Positions 1,484 through 12,545 of a DNA stretch of 64,000 nucleotides are shown piece by piece (position 1 is the stretch's first letter; every line of letters starts with the position of its first letter). The position numbers and the translations under genes were made by a program. This DNA comes from Candidatus Cloacimonadales bacterium (GTDB taxonomy: Bacteria > Cloacimonadota > Cloacimonadia > Cloacimonadales > DAONDQ01): positions 3,968,001 to 4,032,000 of the forward strand of contig OY759316.1 of assembly GCA_963662275.1 (NCBI GenBank), in the 5' to 3' direction. The notes beneath the pieces were generated by a model. The model worked only from the letters and a program-made list of their open reading frames with translations, searched no databases and was not told the origin of the DNA.

Positions 1484-1511
1484 TTGACTATCATTATTAT
1501 ATAAATATTAT
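1484..1511 (+). promoter_or_regulatory. putative sigma70-type promoter of the Ntn-hydrolase operon
   Basis: TTGACT (1484-1489), 16 bp spacer, TATTAT (1506-1511), ~65 bp upstream of ATG 1577. Confidence 0.4.
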
Positions 1512-1576
1512 TTGATATTTTGATTCGTTGGAATTGAGGCTTTATAATTATTTAGTATATTTTGGAGGGAAGTTTT

Positions 1577-2869
1577 ATGACTGCTATTATTGGAATCATG
1601 AACAAACGGGCAATTGCTATTGCAGCAGATAGTGCTGTTTATGTTAATTCTGCTGAAGGTCACAAAATATATAATACTGCCAATAAAATATTTACATTAT
1701 CCAAGCATCATCCAATTGCAGTTATGATTTATAACTCTTCTGATTTGATGACGATTCCCTGGGAAACAATCATTAAAATGTATCGAGATAAGATTGACTC
1801 TAACTCATATCCTAAGTTAAGTGATTACAAAGATGATTTCATAAATTATGTAAAAGAAAACTATGTTACCAACAACTTGTTGATATCTAATGAAAAACAA
1901 AAAAATATGCAGTTACAGAATCTTCAGAGTTTTTCACCAAGAATTCTGACTCAAATGGCAGGACATAGTTTAGAAGATTTTACAGAAGAAGAACTCACTA
2001 AATTTCTTAATGAGTTAGATCCTGGTATTCTTGAAAGTTATGTTAATGACCAAAAAGAACAAATTATCAATGATAATCTTATAATTCATGAGTTAGATGA
2101 TTATTCATTTGAACACTTTACAAACTACTTGTACAGTGATTTCAAAGCTTTTCTCTCACAATTCATGAGCGGAAATCCGAACATTGATAGAATTTCCTCT
2201 TTGTTATTAGAATTGTATTTTCTTTGTTATATCAAGATAGGAAATATCGAAAATCTTTGGACAGGTCTGGTATTTATCGGTTTTGGAAATGACGAAATAT
2301 ATCCTAGAATGTATGAATTGCTTATTGGTGAAGTTTTTGACTATAAATTAAGGTATTATGAAGGAAGAAGTGTAATCATTGATGATCAGTTTAATGGCGC
2401 TATCATGCCATTTGCCCAAAGAGACGTTATTGATAATATCATAACAGGAATTAATTCTGAGATTACTTCAGCTTATGCCAATACAATGTTCAGTGTTCTA
2501 AAAAGCTATAATCAAAAATTAATTGACGTTTTTAGTGAAGATCCAGAAATTACAAAAGAGATTTCAAGTCTGAATATCAGTGAGTGGGTAGATGTCTTTA
2601 ACAAAACAATGGGGGAATATATCGGGAACAAGTTCATTCTTCCTATTGTCAATGCGGTATCTACTTTATCAAAAGAAGATTTGGCAGAAATGGCAGAGAG
2701 TTTAATTAAATTAACTTATCTGCAGAGAAGAATGAGTTTTCATGAAGAAAGTGTGGGCGGACCAATAGATGTCGCTATAATATCTAAGGGTGATGGATTT
2801 GTTTGGATAAAAAGGAAACAGTATTTTGATCCCAAAATCAATCAGCACTTTATTAAGAATTATTTATAA
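1577..2869 (+). CDS. proteasome beta-subunit-like Ntn-hydrolase with large insertions (430 aa)
   Basis: ATG 1577 follows the RBS GGAGGG. After Met removal it has Thr1, Asp17 (AADS) and Lys36 (NKIF), matching the T1/D17/K33 triad of proteasome beta/HslV/Anbu. C-terminal SVGGPIDVAII motif. Confidence 0.75.
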   Translation: MTAIIGIMNKRAIAIAADSAVYVNSAEGHKIYNTANKIFTLSKHHPIAVMIYNSSDLMTIPWETIIKMYRDKIDSNSYPKLSDYKDDFINYVKENYVTNNLLISNEKQKNMQLQNLQSFSPRILTQMAGHSLEDFTEEELTKFLNELDPGILESYVNDQKEQIINDNLIIHELDDYSFEHFTNYLYSDFKAFLSQFMSGNPNIDRISSLLLELYFLCYIKIGNIENLWTGLVFIGFGNDEIYPRMYELLIGEVFDYKLRYYEGRSVIIDDQFNGAIMPFAQRDVIDNIITGINSEITSAYANTMFSVLKSYNQKLIDVFSEDPEITKEISSLNISEWVDVFNKTMGEYIGNKFILPIVNAVSTLSKEDLAEMAESLIKLTYLQRRMSFHEESVGGPIDVAIISKGDGFVWIKRKQYFDPKINQHFIKNYL

Positions 2870-2881
2870 AAGGAGTATATC

Positions 2882-3061
2882 ATGTGGCCTCAAAGCAAAC
2901 CTACTGTTGATGATGAGAAACAGATTTGGCTAACAAAACTGATTTCTAAAAACAACAAAGACGAAATCACAGAAGAGACTACTCCCGAAGAGTTAGCCCA
3001 AATAATAAGCAAAAGGATTATGGCGATTATTGATCGTCAATTAGCAAACGCAAAAAACTAA
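2882..3061 (+). CDS. small hypothetical protein (59 aa), not in the ORF track
   Basis: AAGGAG RBS at 2870-2875, ATG 2882, MWPQSKPTVDDEKQIWLTKLISKNNKDEITEETTPEELAQIISKRIMAIIDRQLANAKN*. Starts 12 bp after the previous stop and is followed directly by a terminator. Confidence 0.75.
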   Translation: MWPQSKPTVDDEKQIWLTKLISKNNKDEITEETTPEELAQIISKRIMAIIDRQLANAKN

Positions 3062-3068
3062 TAACCTT

Positions 3069-3116
3069 ACATAAAAAATCCTTCACGAAAAGTGAAGGAT
3101 TTTTTTATGTTTTTTT
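3069..3116 (+). terminator. intrinsic terminator, possibly bidirectional
   Basis: acataaaaaatccttcac-gaaaa-gtgaaggatttttttatgt followed by a T-run. Confidence 0.85.
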
Positions 3117-3519: not shown

Positions 3520-5079
3520 ATGACAAAAGAACAAGAAAGAGATGAGTTACACCGCGCTATATGGCAGATTGCCACGGATTTACGGGGCAGCGTTGACGGA
3601 TGGGATTTCAAATCCTATGTGCTGGGTATGTTATTTTACAGATTTATTTCAGAGAACCTGACTCTATTTTTAAACAAGGAAGAACAGCGTACAGGAAACA
3701 AAGACTTTAATTATGCTGAATTATCTGACAAGGAAGCCGAGTTTGGCAGGGCTGATACGGTAAAAGAAAAAGGCTTTTATGTCCTCCCCTCCGAGCTGTT
3801 TTTTAATGTTCGCAAAAACGCAAAGAACGATGCTGATCTGAATGAAACACTGAGTAGGATTTTTACCAACATTGAAAACTCCGCTAAAGGGACCGAGAGC
3901 GAAAATGATTTGAAGGGTTTGTTTGATGATATAGACCTTAACAGCAACAAATTGGGAGCCACTGTACAAAAAAGAAATGAAAAGCTGGTAAAGATATTGG
4001 ATGCCATTGGTGGACTAAATCTGGGTGATTATCAGGATAATACGAATGATACTTTCGGTGATGCCTACGAATTTCTGATGACCATGTATGCCAGTAATGC
4101 CGGTAAATCAGGGGGAGAATTCTTTACGCCCCAGGAAGTTTCCGAATTACTCGCTGAAATGGCAGTAGTCGGCAAAAAAGAAGTCAATAAGGTCTATGAC
4201 CCTGCCTGCGGTTCCGGTTCACTACTGCTCAAATTTGCTAAAGTACTGGGCAAAGAAAATGTCCGTCAGGGATTTTATGGACAAGAGATAAATCTTTCCA
4301 CCTACAATCTGTGCCGCATCAATATGTTTCTGCACGATGTCAACTTTGAGAAGTTCGATATCGCTCATGGTGATACTTTAATGGATCCTAAACACTGGGA
4401 TGATGAGCCGTTTGATGCCATTGTTTCCAATCCTCCCTACTCCATCCACTGGGATGGAGATGCCAACCCCTTATTGATAAATGATCCCCGTTTTTCACCT
4501 GCAGGAGTGCTTGCTCCCAAAAGCAAAGCCGACCTTGCTTTTACCATGCACATGCTTTCCTGGCTTTCGACATCCGGCACTGCGGCTATTGTTGAATTCC
4601 CTGGAGTTTTGTATCGTGGTGGGGCTGAACAGAAGATTCGCAAATACCTAATCGACAACAATTACATTGATACGGTTATTCAACTCCCGCCTGATTTGTT
4701 CTTTGGAACTACCATTGCCACCTGTATTATCGTGATTAAAAAGAGCAAAAAAGACAATGCCACCCTGTTTATTGATGCCTCTGCCGAGTTTGTACGGGGA
4801 GGCAACAAAAACAAGCTTTCTGAAGCCAACCGCAAACGTATCCTGAATGCCTTTATTCAGCGTCAAGACGAAGACTACTTTACCAGGCTGGTTCCCAATA
4901 GCGAGATTGCAGAGAATGAGTACAATATCGCAGTAAGCTCTTTTGTAATTCGGGAAGATACAAGTGAGGATGTCGATATAGAACAGCTCAATGCCCATAT
5001 TGCAGAGATTGTGATTAGACAGAACCATCTGCGCACTGCTATTGATGAGATAGTAGCTGATTTGGAAGGTACTGTATGA
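3520..5079 (+). CDS. hsdM: type I restriction-modification methyltransferase subunit M
   Basis: GEFFTP, DPACGSG (motif I) and NPPY (motif IV); LRGSVDGWDFK N-terminus typical of EcoR124I-like HsdM. Confidence 0.97.
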   Translation: MTKEQERDELHRAIWQIATDLRGSVDGWDFKSYVLGMLFYRFISENLTLFLNKEEQRTGNKDFNYAELSDKEAEFGRADTVKEKGFYVLPSELFFNVRKNAKNDADLNETLSRIFTNIENSAKGTESENDLKGLFDDIDLNSNKLGATVQKRNEKLVKILDAIGGLNLGDYQDNTNDTFGDAYEFLMTMYASNAGKSGGEFFTPQEVSELLAEMAVVGKKEVNKVYDPACGSGSLLLKFAKVLGKENVRQGFYGQEINLSTYNLCRINMFLHDVNFEKFDIAHGDTLMDPKHWDDEPFDAIVSNPPYSIHWDGDANPLLINDPRFSPAGVLAPKSKADLAFTMHMLSWLSTSGTAAIVEFPGVLYRGGAEQKIRKYLIDNNYIDTVIQLPPDLFFGTTIATCIIVIKKSKKDNATLFIDASAEFVRGGNKNKLSEANRKRILNAFIQRQDEDYFTRLVPNSEIAENEYNIAVSSFVIREDTSEDVDIEQLNAHIAEIVIRQNHLRTAIDEIVADLEGTV

Positions 5080-5101
5080 TTACTTTCAAAGAGATAGCGT
5101 T

Positions 5102-6331
5102 ATGAACACGATAGATGGATTGATACAAGAACTATGTCCAGATGGAGTGGAGTGGAATACTCTGGGGGAGGCATGTCAATATATTTCAGCTGGAGGAGAT
5201 TTACCCAATAATTATAAAAAAGGTCAGACAATTCCTTCAGCAGACTTTCCATATCCAATTTTTTCGAATGGCACAGAAAAAAATGCTCTTTATGGTTATA
5301 CGGATAGCTTTAAGATTGATGCTGAAGCTGTAACTATTTCTGCACGTGGTACGATAGGATATCATACTGTACGTAATCCAAAATTTACACCAATCGTTCG
5401 ACTGATAACCTTGATCCCTAAGCAAGAGTATATTATTGCTAAGTACCTAAATTATGTTTTAGATATTACAATCATAGGCTCTTCTGGAGGAAGTATTCCT
5501 CAATTGACTGTGCCAAATGTTAAGAAAATCTCTATCCCCATCCCCCCTCTGCCTATTCAGCAGGAGATTGTCAGCATACTCGACAAGTTTACTAAGCTGG
5601 AGGCGGAGCTGGAGGCGGAGCTGGAGGCGGAGCTGGAGGCCCGCAAAAAACAGTATGAATTTTACCGTAATCAATTACTGACACCCGCTGATGTTGATGG
5701 CAAATGGTATTTGAATGGTAAAGACGTAATATGGGTTGAAATTGAAGAAGTTTTCCATCTACGAAATGGATATACTCCATCAAAAACAAGAAGTGATTTT
5801 TGGACAAACGGAAAGATCCCTTGGTTTCGATTAGAAGACATAAGAGAAAACGGAAGAATTTTGTCAGATTCTATACAGCATATTACTTCGGATGCTATTA
5901 AGGGAAAAGGACTATTCCCAGCTAATTCAATCATACTAACTACATCGGCAACAATAGGAGAGCATGCGCTAATTACAATGGCTTTTTTAGCGAATCAGAG
6001 ATTTACATGTATGTCAGTAAAACAAGCTTATTATTCAAAACTTAACGTGTTCTATATGCAATACTACATGTATGTTGTTGATGAGTGGTGTAAAAATAAT
6101 ATTAACGTATCAGGTTTTGCAAGCGTAGATATGGACAAATTTCGGAAACTAAAAATCCCTATCCCACCTCTTGACGAACAGGAGCGTATTGTAACCATAT
6201 TGGATAAATTCGATGCTTTGGTCAATGACATATCATTCGGTCTTCCTGCCGAAATAGAAGCCAGAAGAAAGCAATATGAGTACTATCGGAAAAAGCTGCT
6301 GACCTTCAAAAACATCTCAGATGTTTCATGA
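5102..6331 (+). CDS. hsdS: type I R-M specificity subunit S
   Basis: Two TRDs, each followed by IPIPPL..Q..IV.ILDKF; central LEAE repeat; CPDGVEW N-terminus. Confidence 0.96.
   Translation: MNTIDGLIQELCPDGVEWNTLGEACQYISAGGDLPNNYKKGQTIPSADFPYPIFSNGTEKNALYGYTDSFKIDAEAVTISARGTIGYHTVRNPKFTPIVRLITLIPKQEYIIAKYLNYVLDITIIGSSGGSIPQLTVPNVKKISIPIPPLPIQQEIVSILDKFTKLEAELEAELEAELEARKKQYEFYRNQLLTPADVDGKWYLNGKDVIWVEIEEVFHLRNGYTPSKTRSDFWTNGKIPWFRLEDIRENGRILSDSIQHITSDAIKGKGLFPANSIILTTSATIGEHALITMAFLANQRFTCMSVKQAYYSKLNVFYMQYYMYVVDEWCKNNINVSGFASVDMDKFRKLKIPIPPLDEQERIVTILDKFDALVNDISFGLPAEIEARRKQYEYYRKKLLTFKNISDVS
5595..5640 (+). repeat. in-frame 12-bp tandem repeat (AGCTGGAGGCGG x3.8) in the hsdS spacer helix
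   Basis: Perfect units at 5595, 5607 and 5619, partial unit at 5631. Encodes (LEAE)n. Confidence 0.95.
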
Positions 6332-6338
6332 GGTAAAG

Positions 6339-9300
6339 ATGAAATATGATATCATAGCTCAAAACCCGGAAAGTACTGTTGTCGCAGAATACAATTCACC
6401 TTCTATACGAGAGACAGCTTACCAATCTGAAGCTGACTTGGAAAAGGATTTTGTTCAATTGTTAAAGGCACAGGCTTATGAATATCTGCCAATCACTTCT
6501 GAAAGTGGGCTGATTGCCAATCTGCGAAAACAACTGGAAATCCTAAACAACTACTCTTTTTCTGATAAAGAATGGAAACAATTGTTCGAAACCAAAATTG
6601 CCAACCTTAACAATGGCATTGAAGAAAAAACCACGATCCTTCAAGAGGACTTTATCCAGTTATTAACCTGTGACAATGGGGTAACGAAAAACATCTATTT
6701 ACTGGATAAAGCTAATATTCATAATAACCGTTTGCAGGTGATTAATCAATATTCTGTTGATGGCGGTCAGCGTGCCAACCGCTATGATGCTACGATATTG
6801 GTAAACGGTATTCCTATGGTTCACCTGGAGCTTAAAAAACGAGGTGTGGATATAAAAGAGGCGTTTAACCAGATCAACCGTTATAATCGCGAATCCTTCT
6901 GGGCAGGGAGTGGACTCTTTGAGTATATCCAGATATTTGTTATTTCTAACGGCACTCATACCAAATATTACAGTAATACAACCCGATTCACTCATATAAA
7001 AGAACAAAGTGACGGAAAAGTAAAAAAGGGGAAGCGCACAAGCAACAGCTTTGAGTTTACTTCCTGGTGGGCTGATGGCAATAATAAACCTATCACAGAT
7101 TTGATGGATTTTGGAAGAACTTTTTTTGCCAAACATACCTTGTTAAACCTGCTGACGAAATATTGTGTTTTTACTTCTGATAAACTACTGCTTGCCATGC
7201 GTCCCTACCAAATTGTGGCAACTGAGCGTATCTTGAGAAGAATTGAAATTGCACATAATTATAAACAATACGGTAATGTTGATGGTGGCGGATATATCTG
7301 GCATACAACAGGCAGCGGAAAGACACTGACTTCCTTTAAAACTGCTCAGATTGCATGCAAACTGCCATATATAGATAAGGTGCTGTTTGTAGTTGATAGA
7401 AAAGACCTTGATTATCAGACAATGTTAGAATATGATAAATTTGAGAAAGGAGCTGCGAATAGTAATACAAGTACTGCAATATTAAAAAAACAGCTTGAAG
7501 ATATCAACGCCAAGATCATCATTACCACGATACAGAAGCTATCTGTCCTGATAAAAAAAGAAAAATATCATCCTGTCTATAATCAGCATGTAGTGATTAT
7601 CTTTGATGAGTGCCATCGTTCCCAGTTTGGTGATATGCACAATGCAATTACAAAGAGCTTTAAGAAATATCATCTGTTTGGATTTACAGGCACTCCCATA
7701 TTTGCAGTTAATGCAAGTAGAAACTTGAATTCTCAATTATGTACAACAGAACAAGCATTTGGTGAAAAGCTTCATACTTATACCATCGTAGATGCCATTA
7801 TGGATAAGAACGTTCTTCCCTTCCGTATAGATTATATCAGCACAATGAAGGAGCAGGAAGATATTGCCGACACTAAAGTATGGGACATTGATAGAGAAAG
7901 AGCACTGGCAGCCCCTGCACGTGTAACTAACATCGTGAAGTATATTCTTGAACATTTTGATCAGAAGACCAAACGGAATAGCTATTATCAGCTCAAGGAA
8001 AGACGTTTGGCGGGCTTCAATGCTATCTTTGCCACAGCATCGATTGACATTGCGAAGAAATACTATTCCGAATTTCAAAAACAGATGACTGGATTACCAA
8101 GCGATAAACAATTAAAAATTGCCACAATTTACAGCTTTGGAGTCAATGAAGACGAGGTAGAGATAGAGGGTATAATCGAGGATGAAAACCTGGAGGATAC
8201 AAGCAGATTGGATAAAAGCTCAAGGGATTTCCTGGAATCTGCAATAGAGGACTATAATAAACTCTTCAGAACAAACTTCGATACTTCCAGCGATAAGTTT
8301 CAAAACTATTATAAAGATGTCTCCCAAAGAGTAAAAGACCGTGAAATTGACTTGCTTCTAGTCGTAAATATGTTCCTTACAGGTTTTGATGCTACAACAC
8401 TCAATACACTCTGGGTGGATAAGAATCTACGTTTACATGGTCTTTTACAGGCATATTCACGTACAAACCGTATTCTCAATACGATCAAAACCTTCGGGAA
8501 TATCGTATGTTTCCGAAATTTAGAGAAAGCAACCAATGAGAGTATAGCCCTATTTGGAGATAAGGAAGCAAGTGGGATAGTCCTGCTTAAGACCTTTGAT
8601 GAATACTACCATGGATATCATTCTGGAGAGAAAACAATACCCGGCTATGTGGAATTAGTGGGTGAACTGCTGGAAAAATATCCCGTTGGAGCAAGAATCA
8701 TCGGTGAACAGAATCAAAAGGATTTTATCAAACTGTATGGTACTATCTTGAAATTACGCAATATCCTTTCATCTTTTGATGAGTTTATCGGACTTGAAAT
8801 CCTGACGGAAAGAGATGTCCAGGACTATCATAGCATGTATATCGATCTCTACAATGAATTCCGAGGAAAGAACAAAGGCGATGCAGAAAACGTAAATGAC
8901 GACATTGTGTTTGAAATGGAATTGATCAAGCAAGTAGAGATAAACATTGATTACATTTTAATGCTGATCAAGAAATATCATGAAGGACACCAAAAGAATA
9001 AAGAGATAGTAATCAGTATAAACAAAGCAATTGATTCCAGCGTAGAATTACGTAACAAAAAAGACCTAATAGACCTATTCATAGCCAGCTTAAATCCCTC
9101 AACAGATGTGGATAAAGATTGGCATGAATTTGTAGAAGCAAAAAAAATAGAGGAATTGAATAAAATAATAGAAGATGAGAACCTAGACAAAGAAGAAACA
9201 TATAAATTCATCGCAAATGCATTCAGAGATGGATTCGTACAAGAATCAGGCACTGCAATCACAAAGGTCTTACCTCCTATTTCTAAATTCACACCAACTG

Positions 9301-9392
9301 GTGAACGCAGTATAAAGAAAGCATCTGTTCTGGAGAGATTTAAAGCCTTCTTTAATAGGTTTTGGGATATTTCGGGAAGTAACACGCTATGA
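6339..9392 (+). CDS. hsdR: type I R-M endonuclease subunit R
   Basis: RYD..ELK nuclease motif, TGSGKT Walker A, DECHRS, FTGTP, LTGFD, QAYSRTNR. Start moved from 6321 to ATG 6339 (GAGGT RBS). Confidence 0.96.
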   Translation: MKYDIIAQNPESTVVAEYNSPSIRETAYQSEADLEKDFVQLLKAQAYEYLPITSESGLIANLRKQLEILNNYSFSDKEWKQLFETKIANLNNGIEEKTTILQEDFIQLLTCDNGVTKNIYLLDKANIHNNRLQVINQYSVDGGQRANRYDATILVNGIPMVHLELKKRGVDIKEAFNQINRYNRESFWAGSGLFEYIQIFVISNGTHTKYYSNTTRFTHIKEQSDGKVKKGKRTSNSFEFTSWWADGNNKPITDLMDFGRTFFAKHTLLNLLTKYCVFTSDKLLLAMRPYQIVATERILRRIEIAHNYKQYGNVDGGGYIWHTTGSGKTLTSFKTAQIACKLPYIDKVLFVVDRKDLDYQTMLEYDKFEKGAANSNTSTAILKKQLEDINAKIIITTIQKLSVLIKKEKYHPVYNQHVVIIFDECHRSQFGDMHNAITKSFKKYHLFGFTGTPIFAVNASRNLNSQLCTTEQAFGEKLHTYTIVDAIMDKNVLPFRIDYISTMKEQEDIADTKVWDIDRERALAAPARVTNIVKYILEHFDQKTKRNSYYQLKERRLAGFNAIFATASIDIAKKYYSEFQKQMTGLPSDKQLKIATIYSFGVNEDEVEIEGIIEDENLEDTSRLDKSSRDFLESAIEDYNKLFRTNFDTSSDKFQNYYKDVSQRVKDREIDLLLVVNMFLTGFDATTLNTLWVDKNLRLHGLLQAYSRTNRILNTIKTFGNIVCFRNLEKATNESIALFGDKEASGIVLLKTFDEYYHGYHSGEKTIPGYVELVGELLEKYPVGARIIGEQNQKDFIKLYGTILKLRNILSSFDEFIGLEILTERDVQDYHSMYIDLYNEFRGKNKGDAENVNDDIVFEMELIKQVEINIDYILMLIKKYHEGHQKNKEIVISINKAIDSSVELRNKKDLIDLFIASLNPSTDVDKDWHEFVEAKKIEELNKIIEDENLDKEETYKFIANAFRDGFVQESGTAITKVLPPISKFTPTGERSIKKASVLERFKAFFNRFWDISGSNTL

Positions 9393-9514
9393 ATATGCGG
9401 CTTATAATCATTACCTGGAGAAGATTAGGGAAATGGGATTTTATTGTCGCACATGACATGTCAAAACTAAGCATTATAAGAACTCAATGACTGATACTAT
9501 GAAAGGAGGATATC

Positions 9515-10465
9515 GTGAAAAATCTCTTTATTGTTGATGGAGCCTCGGGAGCAGGTAAATTTGAGATGGTAAAATATGTATCCGAGTTTAAAAATGATTG
9601 CTCATATGTCCAGAAGTATACAACCAGAAAAACTCGCAATTACGAGAAGAATGCTCGGTTGATTCTTGATCTTATTTTTGTAGATGACGATACGAAATTT
9701 CAGGAGATGAAATTTGATTACAAATATAGGTATGCAGGAAATATGTATGGCGTGTATAAAAAAGATATTTTAGCAGCAATGTCTATGAGTAATAACGTGT
9801 TTATTATAATCAGAAATTATGAAGTAATCAATTCATTAGCCCATGATTTTTCGTATGTTAATGTCATCCCATTATTTGTACATACTTGTGATAATGTAAT
9901 TGAAAAATGGATGAAGGAAAAAAAAGATATTACTCCAGAACAGATTAACGAAGCACTTGATAGAAATCTGTTAGCTTATGCTGATTATCATAAAAAACCC
10001 AATATTTACAAAGAAATTATTATTAATAATTCTGACAAAAAAGACCTTTTTACTACATGTGATAAGTTACTTGAAAAATACTACTACTCTTCTTGTATTG
10101 ATGATAAACTGATCTTTATTTTTATGTCATTCAGATCGGAGAACAAACATATGCTAGATTATCTGGAGAGTATGAAAAGAGCTGTGAAAAAAATCGATTC
10201 TTCATACAGATGTATTAATCTCGAAGATATACATGGTTCAAGTTATAAAATCTCTGAAGAAGCAATTTCGAACATGATTCGTTGTAGATTAGCGATTGTG
10301 GATTTATCAGATGCAAGACCAGATGTTTATTATGAATTAGGGTATCTTCATGCGATAAAGAAAAAAACTATTATCACAGCTATTGACGGAACGAATCTAC
10401 CTTTTTACCCAAAAGAATTCAAGGTCGTTTTTACGAAAATGCAACTGATCTGCAGAAGAAGTTAG
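9515..10465 (+). CDS. guanylate-kinase-like P-loop domain fused to a nucleoside 2-deoxyribosyltransferase/TIR-like domain; likely 1-bp frameshift near the 3' end (restored stop 10503)
   Basis: GASGAGK, KYTTRKTR and YG motifs; C-terminal IFIFMSF...AIVDLS...DVYYELG. Adding one T to T5 at 10428-10432 gives VVFYENATDLQKKLVIELSAFLTENM*. Confidence 0.75.
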   Translation: MKNLFIVDGASGAGKFEMVKYVSEFKNDCSYVQKYTTRKTRNYEKNARLILDLIFVDDDTKFQEMKFDYKYRYAGNMYGVYKKDILAAMSMSNNVFIIIRNYEVINSLAHDFSYVNVIPLFVHTCDNVIEKWMKEKKDITPEQINEALDRNLLAYADYHKKPNIYKEIIINNSDKKDLFTTCDKLLEKYYYSSCIDDKLIFIFMSFRSENKHMLDYLESMKRAVKKIDSSYRCINLEDIHGSSYKISEEAISNMIRCRLAIVDLSDARPDVYYELGYLHAIKKKTIITAIDGTNLPFYPKEFKVVFTKMQLICRRS

Positions 10466-10622
10466 TAATTGAACTTTCAGCATTCCTAACAGAGAATATG
10501 TAATTGAAGTGAGATTCAACATATTTGAAAGGAGAAGGCATTACTACGGATTAACATTACCTTTATCCAGAATTGATAAAAAAGAAGAATCTCACCAATT
10601 GCTACACAGCAAAGGAGTATCT

Positions 10623-11066
10623 ATGAAAAAGGATGAACTCTCAATATACGAAAGCCCAGCCGTAATCAAGCACTTGGAGATTTTGCAGGATATAATTACG
10701 AGAATGGCTGGGAATGGTGCAGCCTGTAAAACCTGGGCAATACCAGTTATCACCGGCATCATAGCATTCTCGGTGGAAAAACAGTGTATTCCAATCTGGG
10801 TTAGTCTTATTCCCGCGATTATGTTTTTTGTCTTAGATTCATTCTATCATGGGTTAGAAAGGCATTTCATTGACACCCAAAAAGAATTTGTAGCAAAATT
10901 GTCGGATAATACCTTACAATTAAATGATATCTATGTTATAAAATCAATACGATACTTAATTATCCATTTGAAATTCCTGTTTAGAGGGATGTTATCTTTC
11001 GCTACAGGACTTGTCTATATTCCCATTATTGCACTAATATTATGGCTGTGGAAGACAGGCTACTAA
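10623..11066 (+). CDS. small multi-pass membrane protein (TIR-associated effector-like, 147 aa)
   Basis: AAGGAG RBS before ATG 10623. HLEILQDIITRMAGN..KTW motif followed by about three hydrophobic segments and LDSFY..LER. Confidence 0.7.
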   Translation: MKKDELSIYESPAVIKHLEILQDIITRMAGNGAACKTWAIPVITGIIAFSVEKQCIPIWVSLIPAIMFFVLDSFYHGLERHFIDTQKEFVAKLSDNTLQLNDIYVIKSIRYLIIHLKFLFRGMLSFATGLVYIPIIALILWLWKTGY

Positions 11067-11085
11067 ACACACAAAAGAGACGATC

Positions 11086-11193
11086 ATGCCTAAAAGACAA
11101 GTTTTCTATCGGAGGTAATTGTGTATAGAGGATTTAATATCAAAGACATCAAACTCGAAGACAAGTACATCGAAGCTGGTAAAAACCAACAAT
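11086..11193 (+). pseudogene. stubs of two probable TIR-domain genes
   Basis: MPKRQVFY (11086) resembles the N-terminus of MTH538/ThsB-type TIRs and breaks off. GGAGG + GTG 11121 gives MYRGFNIK..., recalled as the N-terminus of another TIR family, and runs into the IS-end remnant. Family match is from memory. Confidence 0.45.
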
Positions 11194-11290
11194 TGAATAA
11201 TATTCTTAATGAGAGCCACTTGTACGGAGTTTTAGAGCCACGTCTTCGCTAAAATAGAGCCACCTAATTCGAAAGTGAGAGCCACAATTC
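11194..11290 (+). mobile_element. IS21-family-like terminal remnant (no transposase)
   Basis: Starts TGAATAAT..; AGAGCCAC at 11212, 11234, 11256 and 11278 (exact 22-bp period). Inverted relatives at 50581-50652 and 52516-52583. Confidence 0.6.
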
Positions 11291-11499
11291 AATTTAAGAC
11301 TGAAGATTAAATATTAAGAATTGGCATTGAAGAAGCTTATAGCTTGTAGGGATAGCGGAAGGTGGCAGAGACCAGGGAACAGTTCAGAGCAGAGCAGACT
11401 TAGAGTTCAAAATTCTTCTTGACTCTTTCATTTGAGGAATAAACTATACGAATTATGTAAATGCATGGGTAAATACGAAACATATCTAGGGGTAGAGAA

Positions 11500-11820
11500 A
11501 TGGCAAAGAATCAAATAAAAGAGCCCTCCATTCAATACAAGCATAGTTGTACACTAGAATACGGACTCGAAAAGCTTATCAATTATGATTTAAAATCCCC
11601 AATCAATTACACTTTGGAATGGGATGATCAGTATTATATTGCTGAGTCAACGGATTTTCCTATCTATGCCATTGGAGATACAGAGCTTGAAGCGATTGAA
11701 GCTTTGAAATTGGAAATTGAGAACCTCTATTCTGAATTACAAGAAAATGAGAAGTTATCTGATGAATGGGCAAAATACAAATTTATGTTACAAAGTATAA
11801 TAATAAAGCACTGTGAATAA
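11500..11820 (+). CDS. HicB-like antitoxin (no DNA-binding domain)
   Basis: YYIAESTDFPIYAIGDTELEAIEALK matches the HicB partial RNase H fold. Acidic. Overlaps the next gene. Confidence 0.6.
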   Translation: MAKNQIKEPSIQYKHSCTLEYGLEKLINYDLKSPINYTLEWDDQYYIAESTDFPIYAIGDTELEAIEALKLEIENLYSELQENEKLSDEWAKYKFMLQSIIIKHCE

Positions 11821-12085
11821 CGCTCAATTTAGCACGAATCAGATACTGAAAGTATGCCAGGATAAGCTTGAAATTGAATTCAAGAGTACCAAAGAGTATA
11901 ATGGTTGGTATATGTTAGATGGGAAATGTGTTTGTCGTATTACAATCCCGAAGGGAAGAAAAGAAGTGCCTCTCAAAACTTATACATGTATGGCTAAACA
12001 ACTGAAACTCACTACATGGCAATTCGATATTTTACTTCAATGTACATTAACAAGAAAGGATATGAGTCGATTATTCGTAGTCTGA
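11813..12085 (+). CDS. HicA-like toxin; probable 1-bp frameshift at the C-terminus (restored stop 12096)
   Basis: Small basic dsRBD-like pattern RITIPKGRKEVPLKT..MAKQLKL. One extra base at ~12060 gives K(D/E)YESIIRSLKLV*. Confidence 0.55.
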   Translation: MNNAQFSTNQILKVCQDKLEIEFKSTKEYNGWYMLDGKCVCRITIPKGRKEVPLKTYTCMAKQLKLTTWQFDILLQCTLTRKDMSRLFVV

Positions 12086-12139
12086 AATTAGTCTGATTTT
12101 ATCAGAACAAATTCAGGAATACATACAATTTTACCGTAT

Positions 12140-12545
12140 GATGTCACTCCTTGCGGGGTTCTAATGGTATTGTGGGTTTCTCCCTGTAGTTCCATTTCAT
12201 TCCACTACAGGTTATGATCTACCATCTCTTCGAGATTAAGAGAAGACGCAAAGAATTTAAGATTGAAAATTGAACACTTCGACGGGCTCAGTGCAAGGAT
12301 TGTGATTTGGCAGAAAAGCAGATCAGAACTAGCTCTCCCTTAATCCCTCCCTTTACAAATGGGAGGGAAATTCCAGAATTATTTTTCATTTTTTAAAAAT
12401 AAATCGAAATGCTCCCTCCTATATATATATATGAGGGCTCTGTTTTAAACGAGTTTAAAACTTCGCTAATTAAAAATTAAAAGTTAAAAATTAGCAGAGC
12501 AGAACTAACGCCCCCTTTATCCCCCTCTTTGCAAAATTGGGGGAG
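12140..12545. repeat. mosaic of REP-like hairpins and short repeats
   Basis: cctgtagt..actacagg hairpin; cttcgacgggctcag motif; tccctcccttt..gggaggga (12333-12371, copy at 63351-63390); (TA)n stem; palindrome gttttaaac-ga-gtttaaaac. Confidence 0.6.

Follow-up and report, generated by a model that had tools for sequence, protein, structure and literature searches.

Proteasome-like N-terminal nucleophile (Ntn) hydrolases are defined by a beta-sheet core flanked by the helices H1 to H4 and by a catalytic triad of Thr1 or Ser1, Asp17, and Lys33 (Fuchs, Alva and Lupas, Bioinformatics 2021, PMC8665760). That catalogue describes 22 new proteasome homologues, including those called PMI-1 to PMI-6, for "Proteasome homolog with Multiple Insertions." PMI-2 to PMI-6 carry an insertion between H3 and H4, and PMI-5 and PMI-6 carry one between S3 and S4. 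Such insertions were argued to prevent ring and double-ring assembly. The subject of this article is a two-gene cassette that encodes a protease of this kind together with a small partner protein. It lies at positions 1577 to 3061 in a stretch of 64,000 nucleotides (nt) from the genome of a Candidatus Cloacimonadales bacterium (GenBank assembly GCA_963662275.1, contig OY759316.1, positions 3,968,001 to 4,032,000), which is called the window below.

The closest catalogued family is PMI-4, with 501 sequences at 90% identity. It was listed for Proteobacteria, Firmicutes, Actinobacteria, Bacteroidetes, the Planctomycetes–Verrucomicrobia–Chlamydiae (PVC) group, Cyanobacteria, other bacteria, Euryarchaeota, and phages (Table 1, PMC8665760). 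The portion of the catalogue at hand gives no function, gene context, or partner protein for PMI-4.

A second body of information comes from Rrp, the product of SP_1145, annotated as a hypothetical protein of Streptococcus pneumoniae TIGR4 (Mukherjee et al., August 2026 preprint, bioRxiv 10.64898/2026.08.10.744006). According to the accessible part of the preprint, deletion of the normal protease, Prp, leaves Rrp to process the N-terminal extension of ribosomal protein bL27. Cleavage is imprecise and occurs at several sites in bL27, mainly after Met4 and Leu6, and the extension itself is said to be restricted to Firmicutes and their relatives. Rrp has an expected mass of 44.8 kDa and was detected in purified ribosomes and in early fractions from size-exclusion chromatography. 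It was described as an Ntn hydrolase with "additional extended domains" and with Foldseek matches to 7LS6, 1IRU, and 5NYG. The gene is part of a phage-like element whose other genes include int, rep, xis, dnaD, dnaI, and terS. Growth of Escherichia coli was "markedly slow" when Rrp was expressed alone, without its neighbor, and deletion of SP_1145 in the native host gave a slight growth defect. PMI-4, a small downstream gene, and a role in defense are not mentioned in this part of the preprint, and a small partner protein likewise receives no mention in the available text of the catalogue.

A preliminary description of the window, made from the sequence by itself, had not recognized the cassette as a named system. 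This holds for model collections, where Pfam, NCBIfam, and PADLOC have no model for the protease, but not for the literature, given that the protein fits PMI-4 and that a probable member of the family, Rrp/SP_1145, has been studied. The window protease is very probably an additional member of this catalogued, barely studied family.

Fold and Active Site of the Protease

The predicted structure identifies the protease as an Ntn hydrolase with a proteasome-beta-like fold. The AlphaFold2 (AF2) model was built on 142 diverse relatives and has a predicted local distance difference test (pLDDT) score of 93.9 and a predicted template modeling (pTM) score of 0.91. An initial AF2 model built on 26 close relatives was discarded for its pLDDT below 50 at residues 1–58 and 366–430, the conserved core. 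With Foldseek, all 28 matches in the Protein Data Bank (PDB) at E ≤ 0.001 were 20S beta-type subunits or Anbu. A structure search independent of Foldseek put a 20S beta subunit at the top (Z 15.0, 185 residues aligned, root-mean-square deviation 3.5), with same-fold scores for Anbu (Z 14.4), HslV (11.1), BPH (11.1), and connectase (10.7). More distant Ntn hydrolases, such as NAAA, acid ceramidase, and the penicillin acylases, scored Z 7 to 9. In this search, residue 2 of the model superposes on residue 1 of mature beta chains. Among the viral structures of BFVD only other short viral proteasome-like proteins were found, and a full-length relative of the window protease was absent. The model has the following layout.

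Residues 1–98, 229–290, and 366–430: protease core
Residues 13–18, 21–25, 28–32, and 38–40: early strands with short connecting loops
Residues 62–73, 81–98, 282–290, and 366–386: core helices H1, H2, H3, and H4, in that order
Residues ~99–222: helical insertion 1 (helices 105–220), between H2 and the strand at 229–235
Residues ~294–363: helical insertion 2, a long helical hairpin between H3 and H4

The two helical insertions approximately double the size of the protein relative to proteasome-type subunits, and the model has no S3/S4 insertion. An Ntn fold of proteasome-beta type with large helical insertions had been proposed from the sequence, and the model bears this out. Both insertions are predicted to occupy the positions where proteasome subunits make ring and ring–ring contacts. 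For this reason the active form is probably monomeric or a small oligomer and not a gated barrel served by an unfoldase. The family profile of the first insertion (residues 84–163; window 1826–2065) matches cullin-3 repeats in the PDB at E 0.0026 to 0.008, ranked above the proteasome matches, which may be a helical-bundle resemblance only.

Residue numbers used here count the initiator Met, such that T2, D18, and K37 are mature Thr1, Asp17, and Lys36. These residues, named as a putative triad in the preliminary description, are invariant in all 26 close relatives; the 142-row alignment of diverse relatives keeps D18 and K37 invariant, with T2 conserved to at least 90%. K30 is also at least 90% conserved in that alignment, so the sequence leaves open which lysine is catalytic, and K37 was picked by position. 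The protease begins with M-T and has no propeptide, meaning that removal of the Met would expose Thr1.

Further active-site residues of the proteasome are Ser129, Asp166, and Ser169. In the window protease they are not kept as a set, the sole retention being an acidic residue (E390). The GSG motif expected around Ser129 had been reported as replaced, and this is confirmed: in the model, IMPFAQ (residues 276–281) follows the final strand of the second sheet block and precedes helix H3, which is the place of GSG in proteasomes. Within the PFAQ (278–281) that occupies this place, conservation reaches at least 90% for P278, A280, and Q281. Near the C terminus, VGGPIDV is present at residues 393–399, and its likeness to the Thermoplasma beta subunit is recovered by HMMER, which aligned the C-terminal EESVGGPIDVAIISKGDG to D166-SASGGMIDVAVITRKDG (D166-S-A-S-G-G-M-I-D-V) and paired E390 with Asp166 and V393 with Ser169. 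The Thermoplasma match is the top one but weak (E 0.09 to 0.1 with a single sequence and 0.011 with a profile). The catalytic triad is thus retained, but the outer shell of the proteasome active site is not.

No family covers the protease in Pfam, NCBIfam, or PADLOC-DB 2.0.0 (for PADLOC, zero families at E ≤ 10), and no existing defense profile accounts for it. It has no PF00227 match in Pfam, and a sequence search of the PDB with the single protease as query gave no match. In the ESM Atlas the closest clusters are unnamed "hypothetical protein" entries, and an archaeal cluster bearing PF00227 appears only at a score of 0.89.

Probable Membership in PMI-4

The AF2 model, the Foldseek matches, and the Z score of 15.0 place the window protease within the proteasome-like fold as defined in the catalogue. 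It has the two insertions described for PMI-4, one long and following H1/H2 (helices 105–220) and one between H3 and H4 (hairpin 294–363), with neither an S3/S4 insertion nor a propeptide. The loci found in this analysis show the same broad spread over bacteria, Euryarchaeota, and phages. Judged by architecture and distribution, rather than by comparison with the representative HDY66466.1, the protease very likely belongs to PMI-4, with which it has in common the Thr1/Asp17/Lys33-type triad, the absence of a propeptide, both insertions, and the taxa. PMI-3 has the same combination of H1/H2 and H3/H4 insertions, but it comprises 28 sequences and is not listed for Bacteroidetes in the accessible part of the catalogue (PMC8665760).

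A Conserved Small Partner

The protease gene and a gene for a protein of 59 amino acids (aa) make up the cassette, with the signals listed here.

1327–1352, both strands: terminator-like hairpin upstream of the cassette, 10-bp stem, closing off the preceding DNA
1484–1548, forward strand: two overlapping sigma-70-like promoter candidates (1484–1511, TTGACT-16-TATTAT; 1520–1548, TTGATT-17-TATAAT; 10/12 matches each)
1565–1570, forward strand: Shine–Dalgarno-like GGAGGG, 6 nt 5' of ATG 1577, read from the sequence
1577–2869, forward strand: protease gene, 430 aa, proteasome-beta-like Ntn threonine protease, PMI-4/Rrp-like; ATG at 1577, stop TAA at 2869
2871–2876, forward strand: Shine–Dalgarno AAGGAG of the partner open reading frame (ORF), directly 3' of the protease stop codon, read from the sequence
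2882–3061, forward strand: partner gene, 59 aa, type-1 partner
3073–3105, forward strand: intrinsic terminator at the end of the two-gene operon, 14-bp stem, 5-nt loop, T-run

Most of the layout given in the preliminary description stands. The 430-aa reading frame from ATG 1577 is confirmed, with the N terminus MTAIIG; an in-frame TTG at 1562 would lengthen the protein, and the ATG was taken as the start because relatives begin with M-T-A. The coupled 59-aa frame begins 12 nt 3' of the protease stop and has its own AAGGAG. The strong terminator is also upheld, as the region has six terminator-like sites compared with 1.0 ± 1.1 in shuffled sequence. The promoter claim fares less well: the hexamers are there, but with 13 such sites in the region against 11.5 ± 3.4 in shuffles they are not above chance and count as candidates only. 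The cassette is AT-rich as stated, with a G+C content of 31.5% vs 37.3% for the whole window.

The small ORF turned out to be the most constant companion of the protease. Across 84 loci (80 from species genomes, the window, and three phage loci), hidden Markov models (HMMs) made from downstream ORFs recognize a partner in 58, falling into two types. Type 1 is found in 28 loci, from Bacteroidota, a Porphyromonas phage, and the window, and its C-terminal helix has the form EIS-x-I-(V/I)-S-x-K-L-x-x-x-I-K-x-Q. The type-1 HMM, built from Bacteroidota partners, scores the 59-aa window protein at E 6.5e-15. This protein has a variable N-terminal half and a conserved C-terminal amphipathic helix (PEELAQIISKRIMAIIDRQL), and its S43 is at least 90% conserved in alignment A3. 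Type 2 is found in 30 loci from many other phyla and has the motif Y-x-S-x-E-E-F-x-K-x-F-F-P followed by a C-terminal G-x-x-L-A helix, with P29 of the FFP-type motif at least 90% conserved. When the two types were compared with hhalign, the C-terminal helices aligned at a probability of 18%, which is weak and not evidence of common origin. Among the 26 unclassified loci, about 21 have an ORF of 55 to 80 aa in the partner position, judged by eye, and no ORF was seen at that position in the other five of the 84 (L039, L057, L061, L069, and L080). The small partner is thus a conserved part of the unit.

Position and inheritance of the partner were also constant. Of the 58 classified loci, 55 have the first ATG of the partner at a distance of −53 to +19 nt from the stop codon of the protease, and GenBank annotators had called a small coding sequence (CDS) in all four phage or satellite loci inspected. 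Partner type follows the protease tree (FastTree, 83 rows, one of the 84 loci having no usable full-length protease; many forks are open), with 9 changes where shuffled labels gave a mean of 39.3 and none of 200 shuffles was as low. This agreement is one of co-inheritance in the sequence comparison and not of co-evolution, because kin share labels.

These observations bear on two alternatives. The first is that the small reading frame is fortuitous and the protease acts by itself. In its favor are the shortness of the ORF and its Pfam matches, all of them sub-threshold. Against it stand the two partner families across many phyla, with their fixed position and conserved C-terminal helix. The window ORF also has its own Shine–Dalgarno sequence, and the terminator is placed after it, not after the protease gene. 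This alternative can be given next to no weight. The second is that the protease is a sequence-specific transpeptidase or ligase like connectase, with the small protein as a dedicated substrate that is cleaved or ligated at a conserved motif. Connectase is a proteasome homologue that acts as a monomer, has Thr1, and lacks a propeptide (PMC8665760, available portion), it scores Z 10.7 against the model, and the FFP-type motif of type-2 partners, with its conserved P29, could be a recognition site. On the other hand, type-1 partners, including that of the window, have no FFP-type motif, the model has H1/H2 and no S3/S4 insertion, which is the opposite of the connectase signature, and Rrp is reported to cleave imprecisely at several sites. 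A dedicated ligase is therefore considered quite improbable.

Distribution and Mobility

The family is large. Among 8000 candidates scored there were 5216 matches, and 4940 representatives at 50% identity were obtained, nearly all of 400 to 450 aa and none with a Pfam domain. At least 507 stretches were confirmed among 606 pattern matches in a collection with one genome per species. The loci come from Bacteroidota, Pseudomonadota, Bacillota, Actinomycetota, Planctomycetota, and Verrucomicrobiota, as well as from Cyanobacteriota, Chloroflexota, Nitrospirota, Acidobacteriota, ANME-1, and Methanomicrobiales, with most members in Bacteroidota and other non-Firmicutes phyla. At the level of close relatives the distribution is sparse: among 41 genomes of the genus and order of the window, the family is found only in the window's own (1/37 among high-quality genomes). 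It is carried by 13 of 50,697 phage records, nine of which are Streptococcus "Javan" elements and seven of these satellites, and by 10 of 72,556 plasmid records.

The protease tree mixes phyla and is incongruent with taxonomy. For example, the protease from an ANME-1 archaeon (L052) is nearest to that of a Nitrospiraceae bacterium, a pairing in the tree that suggests transfer between domains, and the protease of a Bacteroidales metagenome-assembled genome (MAG) groups with Clostridium. In phages, the cassette sits between Q/Dam and the holin gene in a Providencia phage, at element ends in Streptococcus satellites and prophages, and, in a Porphyromonas phage, among morphogenesis and structural genes with a methyltransferase gene alongside. 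The slots in the Providencia phage and at the ends of satellites are moron positions. The cassette is accessory and mobile, a horizontally acquired, self-contained two-gene unit.

Several individual loci deserve mention. In three Bacillota loci (L051, L062, and L063) and in the Providencia phage (L083) the cassette adjoins holin/endolysin lysis genes; the flank of the lysis genes is a classical slot of prophage accessory cargo. In L052 (4432–8928) a cassette with a type-2 partner stands between cdhC and cdhD, genes of CO dehydrogenase/acetyl-CoA synthase. One Salinispira MAG has two near-identical cassettes on two contigs (L071 and L074), each between DUF3095 and ABC-3 transporter genes, which could reflect duplication of the segment or an artifact of the assembly.

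Mobility of this kind could also mean that the pair serves the mobile element, either as a protease for counter-defense or host takeover, whose cleavage targets would be immune or translation factors of the host during phage or satellite induction, or as an addiction module that stabilizes the element. The phage and satellite occurrences, including the one among structural genes in the Porphyromonas phage, would suit such a role, as would the position directly 3' of the holin–endolysin cassettes in L051, L062, and L063 and the inheritance of partner and protease as one unit. However, most of the 80 genome loci have no recognizable phage genes in their nearest flanks, and the window copy lies in a chromosomal island beside restriction–modification (R-M) genes and defense candidates with no integrase or transfer RNA (tRNA) gene in the 64 kb. 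Accessory regions of prophages and satellites are also typical sites of defense cargo, and the location does not discriminate between the two. A role on behalf of the element is unlikely on balance.

Genomic Neighborhood

In the window the cassette stands at the head of a defense cluster, as the preliminary description had placed it.

3520–9392, forward strand: type I R-M operon (hsdM 3520–5079, hsdS 5102–6331, hsdR 6321–9392)
9515–10465, forward strand: 316-aa protein with a TIR-like or nucleoside-deoxyribosyltransferase-like C terminus (PADLOC Effector TIR, 2e-07; Pfam Nuc_deoxyrib_tr, 1.8e-4, below the cutoff)
10509–11066, forward strand: 185-aa PDC-M50A candidate defense protein (PADLOC, 4.8e-20)

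The TIR-like and PDC-M50A genes are directly consecutive (9515–11066), 3' of the type I R-M operon, and may be a second small defense system. At the far end of the island, at 11500–12085, two small ORFs of 106 and 90 aa overlap by 8 nt in a layout like that of toxin–antitoxin pairs; neither has a match in Pfam or PADLOC. Genes for two-component signaling start at 12.8 kb. Upstream of the cassette, the DNA at 100–1450 is dense in repeats. A ~125-nt unit, made up of TTCGAACTTCG-type repeats and a CCCCCCTT...AAGGGGGG hairpin, is present at 409–553 and again at 1061–1185, with a partial third copy at 166–222, and the final 70 nt of an ORF at 609–1067 are duplicated at 1241–1310 with 71% identity. 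By sequence these look like elements of the miniature inverted-repeat transposable element (MITE) or repetitive extragenic palindromic (REP) kind and a rearranged gene end at the border of the island.

The preliminary description was also right that HslU, PAN, and Pup are missing from the surroundings, as the annotated ORFs between 0.6 and 34 kb include no AAA+ unfoldase or Pup-like gene. The genome does have a canonical hslV (177 aa, PF00227) with an adjoining 456-aa AAA+ gene, hslU-like, at 2250752–2252658, 1.7 Mb from the cassette. The window protease is an extra proteasome homologue beside the hslVU of the genome, and the possibility that it is the housekeeping HslV was ruled out by this canonical pair at 2.25 Mb.

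Among homologous loci, no neighbor family apart from the partner is found in more than 7 of 81 loci. Flanks were scanned with Pfam over up to four of the nearest ORFs of at least 90 aa (284 proteins from 78 loci; L064 and L032 gave none). In about 28 of the 78 loci the flanks have a gene for R-M, a toxin–antitoxin pair, Fic, Schlafen, HipA, a pPIWI-nuclease, an integrase, or phage lysis; the names were read by eye with no control set, and the count is not an enrichment. R-M genes flank the cassette in 9 of these roughly 28 loci. In two Bacteroidales MAGs (L028 and L031, at ~3900–12200) the cassette is embedded in a type I R-M operon, with hsdS on one side and hsdR on the other, and these loci also have a Schlafen/AlbA_2 or Fic/Bro-N gene.

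Rrp as a Probable Characterized Relative

The homologues in Streptococcus satellite phages very probably include Rrp/SP_1145. The window protease aligns over its full length with a pneumococcal 396-aa protein (P0404; 28% identity over 422 columns, E 3e-46), and tblastn against the Streptococcus Javan satellites gave 27 to 30% identity at 97% coverage. S. pneumoniae proteins of 396 aa have masses of 44.76 to 44.88 kDa, compared with the 44.8 kDa stated for Rrp. They fall into the same 90%-identity cluster as QBX10692.1 of the satellite Javan468, the last-but-one CDS of an element that has an integrase, an XRE repressor, and DnaI, all of them also described for the element with SP_1145. The probable Streptococcus orthologues are followed by a CDS of 58 aa. 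With the Javan103 protein as query, neither the phage collection nor the protein database returned a record named SP_1145.

Proposed Function

The preferred reading is that the cassette is a conflict module of the toxin–antitoxin or abortive-infection type. It is put forward because of the mobile and defense-island contexts and because of the growth defect that Rrp alone caused in E. coli, and it is tentative, with a probability of roughly 45%. Proteolytic activity, ribosome association, and the growth defect would carry over to the cassette by analogy with Rrp, its probable relative. Removal of the initiator Met would expose Thr1, which would act with Asp17 and Lys36. The protease could then be an endopeptidase of relaxed specificity that works on exposed tails of ribosomal or translation proteins, as Rrp does on bL27. 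The translationally coupled partner of ~60 aa would use its C-terminal amphipathic helix to bind the protease and would hold it back or steer it. Infection, or loss of the partner, would then set the protease free.

A bolder version would extend this scheme to the family as a whole. The PMI-4/Rrp cassettes could be a widespread and as yet undescribed class of two-gene abortive-infection systems in which the protease attacks the translation apparatus and the ~60-aa antitoxin restrains it until phage infection removes or displaces the antitoxin. A possible target would be the bL27 N terminus, which reaches into the peptidyl-transferase center. This version is speculative and is regarded as doubtful.

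Several points weigh against a conflict module. The authors of the preprint interpret Rrp as a general quality-control or "ribosome rescue" protease (bioRxiv 10.64898/2026.08.10.744006, available part), and the slight growth defect on deletion of SP_1145 is not what is expected of a toxin. The assignment of SP_1145 to the 396-aa Streptococcus cluster comes from mass, species, fold description, and element architecture. In the window protease, PFAQ stands in for the GSG of Ser129 and V393 takes the position of Ser169, with neither serine conserved, so that the chemistry may differ from that of the proteasome. The partner has a single weak match in PADLOC, to PDC-S02 at E 0.006. About 50 of the 78 loci have only housekeeping or unidentified flanks, with shikimate enzymes, L13/S9, ProRS, and ribonucleotide reductase among them. 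Of the two features looked for in the neighborhoods of homologues, the conserved small ORF is thus clearly present, and the association with defense or mobile genes is found in a minority of flanks. A literature search on a defense role of proteasome-like proteins gave none, with only the 2021 catalogue and the Rrp preprint surfacing.

The main competitor is a mobile yet host-beneficial housekeeping or quality-control protease that trims aberrant or unprocessed tails, with the partner as an adaptor or assembly factor and not an antitoxin. Much of what is reported for Rrp would fit: it rescues bL27 processing in a prp deletion mutant, it is present on ribosomes, and its deletion costs the native host some growth. 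The many homologues that sit between housekeeping genes would fit as well. A core function is nevertheless ill-suited to a family present in 1 of 41 related genomes and patchy across phyla, in a genome that already has hslVU, and to a cassette that is cargo of satellites, prophage ends, and plasmids. The bL27 extension is described as confined to Firmicutes and relatives, yet most members are from Bacteroidota and other phyla, and Rrp alone slowed the growth of E. coli. A quality-control role is for these reasons rather unlikely, though more credible than service to the mobile element.

The conflict-module reading, if true, would bring a new class of enzyme into bacterial immunity, with proteasome-type chemistry as the immune effector, and it would account for the presence of a "ribosome rescue protease" on a phage satellite. 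Should the cassette not be a conflict module, its protease would still be a compact proteasome homologue that does without an unfoldase and has a partner of its own, which would matter for the evolution of proteasomes and might make it useful as a tool enzyme. Relatives of the proteasome are usually seen as gated barrels for bulk turnover, and the thousands of members here that keep the triad differ from this picture.

Comparison with Known Systems

The 20S beta subunits, HslV, BPH, and Anbu share the fold and the Thr1-Asp17-Lys33 triad with the window protease (Z 11 to 15). They are approximately half its size, and the window protease adds two helical insertions at the positions of ring contacts. 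Unlike the 20S systems, the cassette has no genes for an unfoldase, an alpha subunit, or Pup nearby, and Ser129 and Ser169 are not conserved. HslV of HslUV systems is a protein of ~175 aa with PF00227, encoded beside hslU, which the 430-aa protease is not.

Connectase (the MJ0548 family) resembles the window protease as a proteasome homologue that has no propeptide and acts alone on a specific partner protein. It lacks H1/H2 and has a two-helix S3/S4 insertion (PMC8665760, available portion). The model of the window protease has H1/H2, with its insertions elsewhere and none at S3/S4, and so falls outside the connectase type.

Toxin–antitoxin and abortive-infection modules in which a protease is paired with a small neutralizing partner form a general class. 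The cassette resembles this class in its two coupled genes, small partner, patchy mobile spread, and defense-island neighbors, and in the growth cost of the enzyme expressed alone, as reported for Rrp. To our knowledge, no member of the class uses a proteasome-like threonine protease.

Rrp offers the nearest functional comparison. Like the window protease, it is an Ntn hydrolase with extended domains, and its structural matches 7LS6, 1IRU, and 5NYG are also among the Foldseek matches of the window protease. It is carried by a phage-like element, and its probable orthologues align with the window protease over the full length. The two differ in sequence (27 to 30% identity) and in length, Rrp being ~35 aa shorter, and the substrate known for Rrp, the bL27 extension, is a feature of Firmicutes and relatives. 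Set against the available parts of both the catalogue and the preprint, the near-universal partner, its two types, and the habit of occupying phage accessory slots and defense islands are new here, and the conserved small partner provides a concrete new handle on the family.

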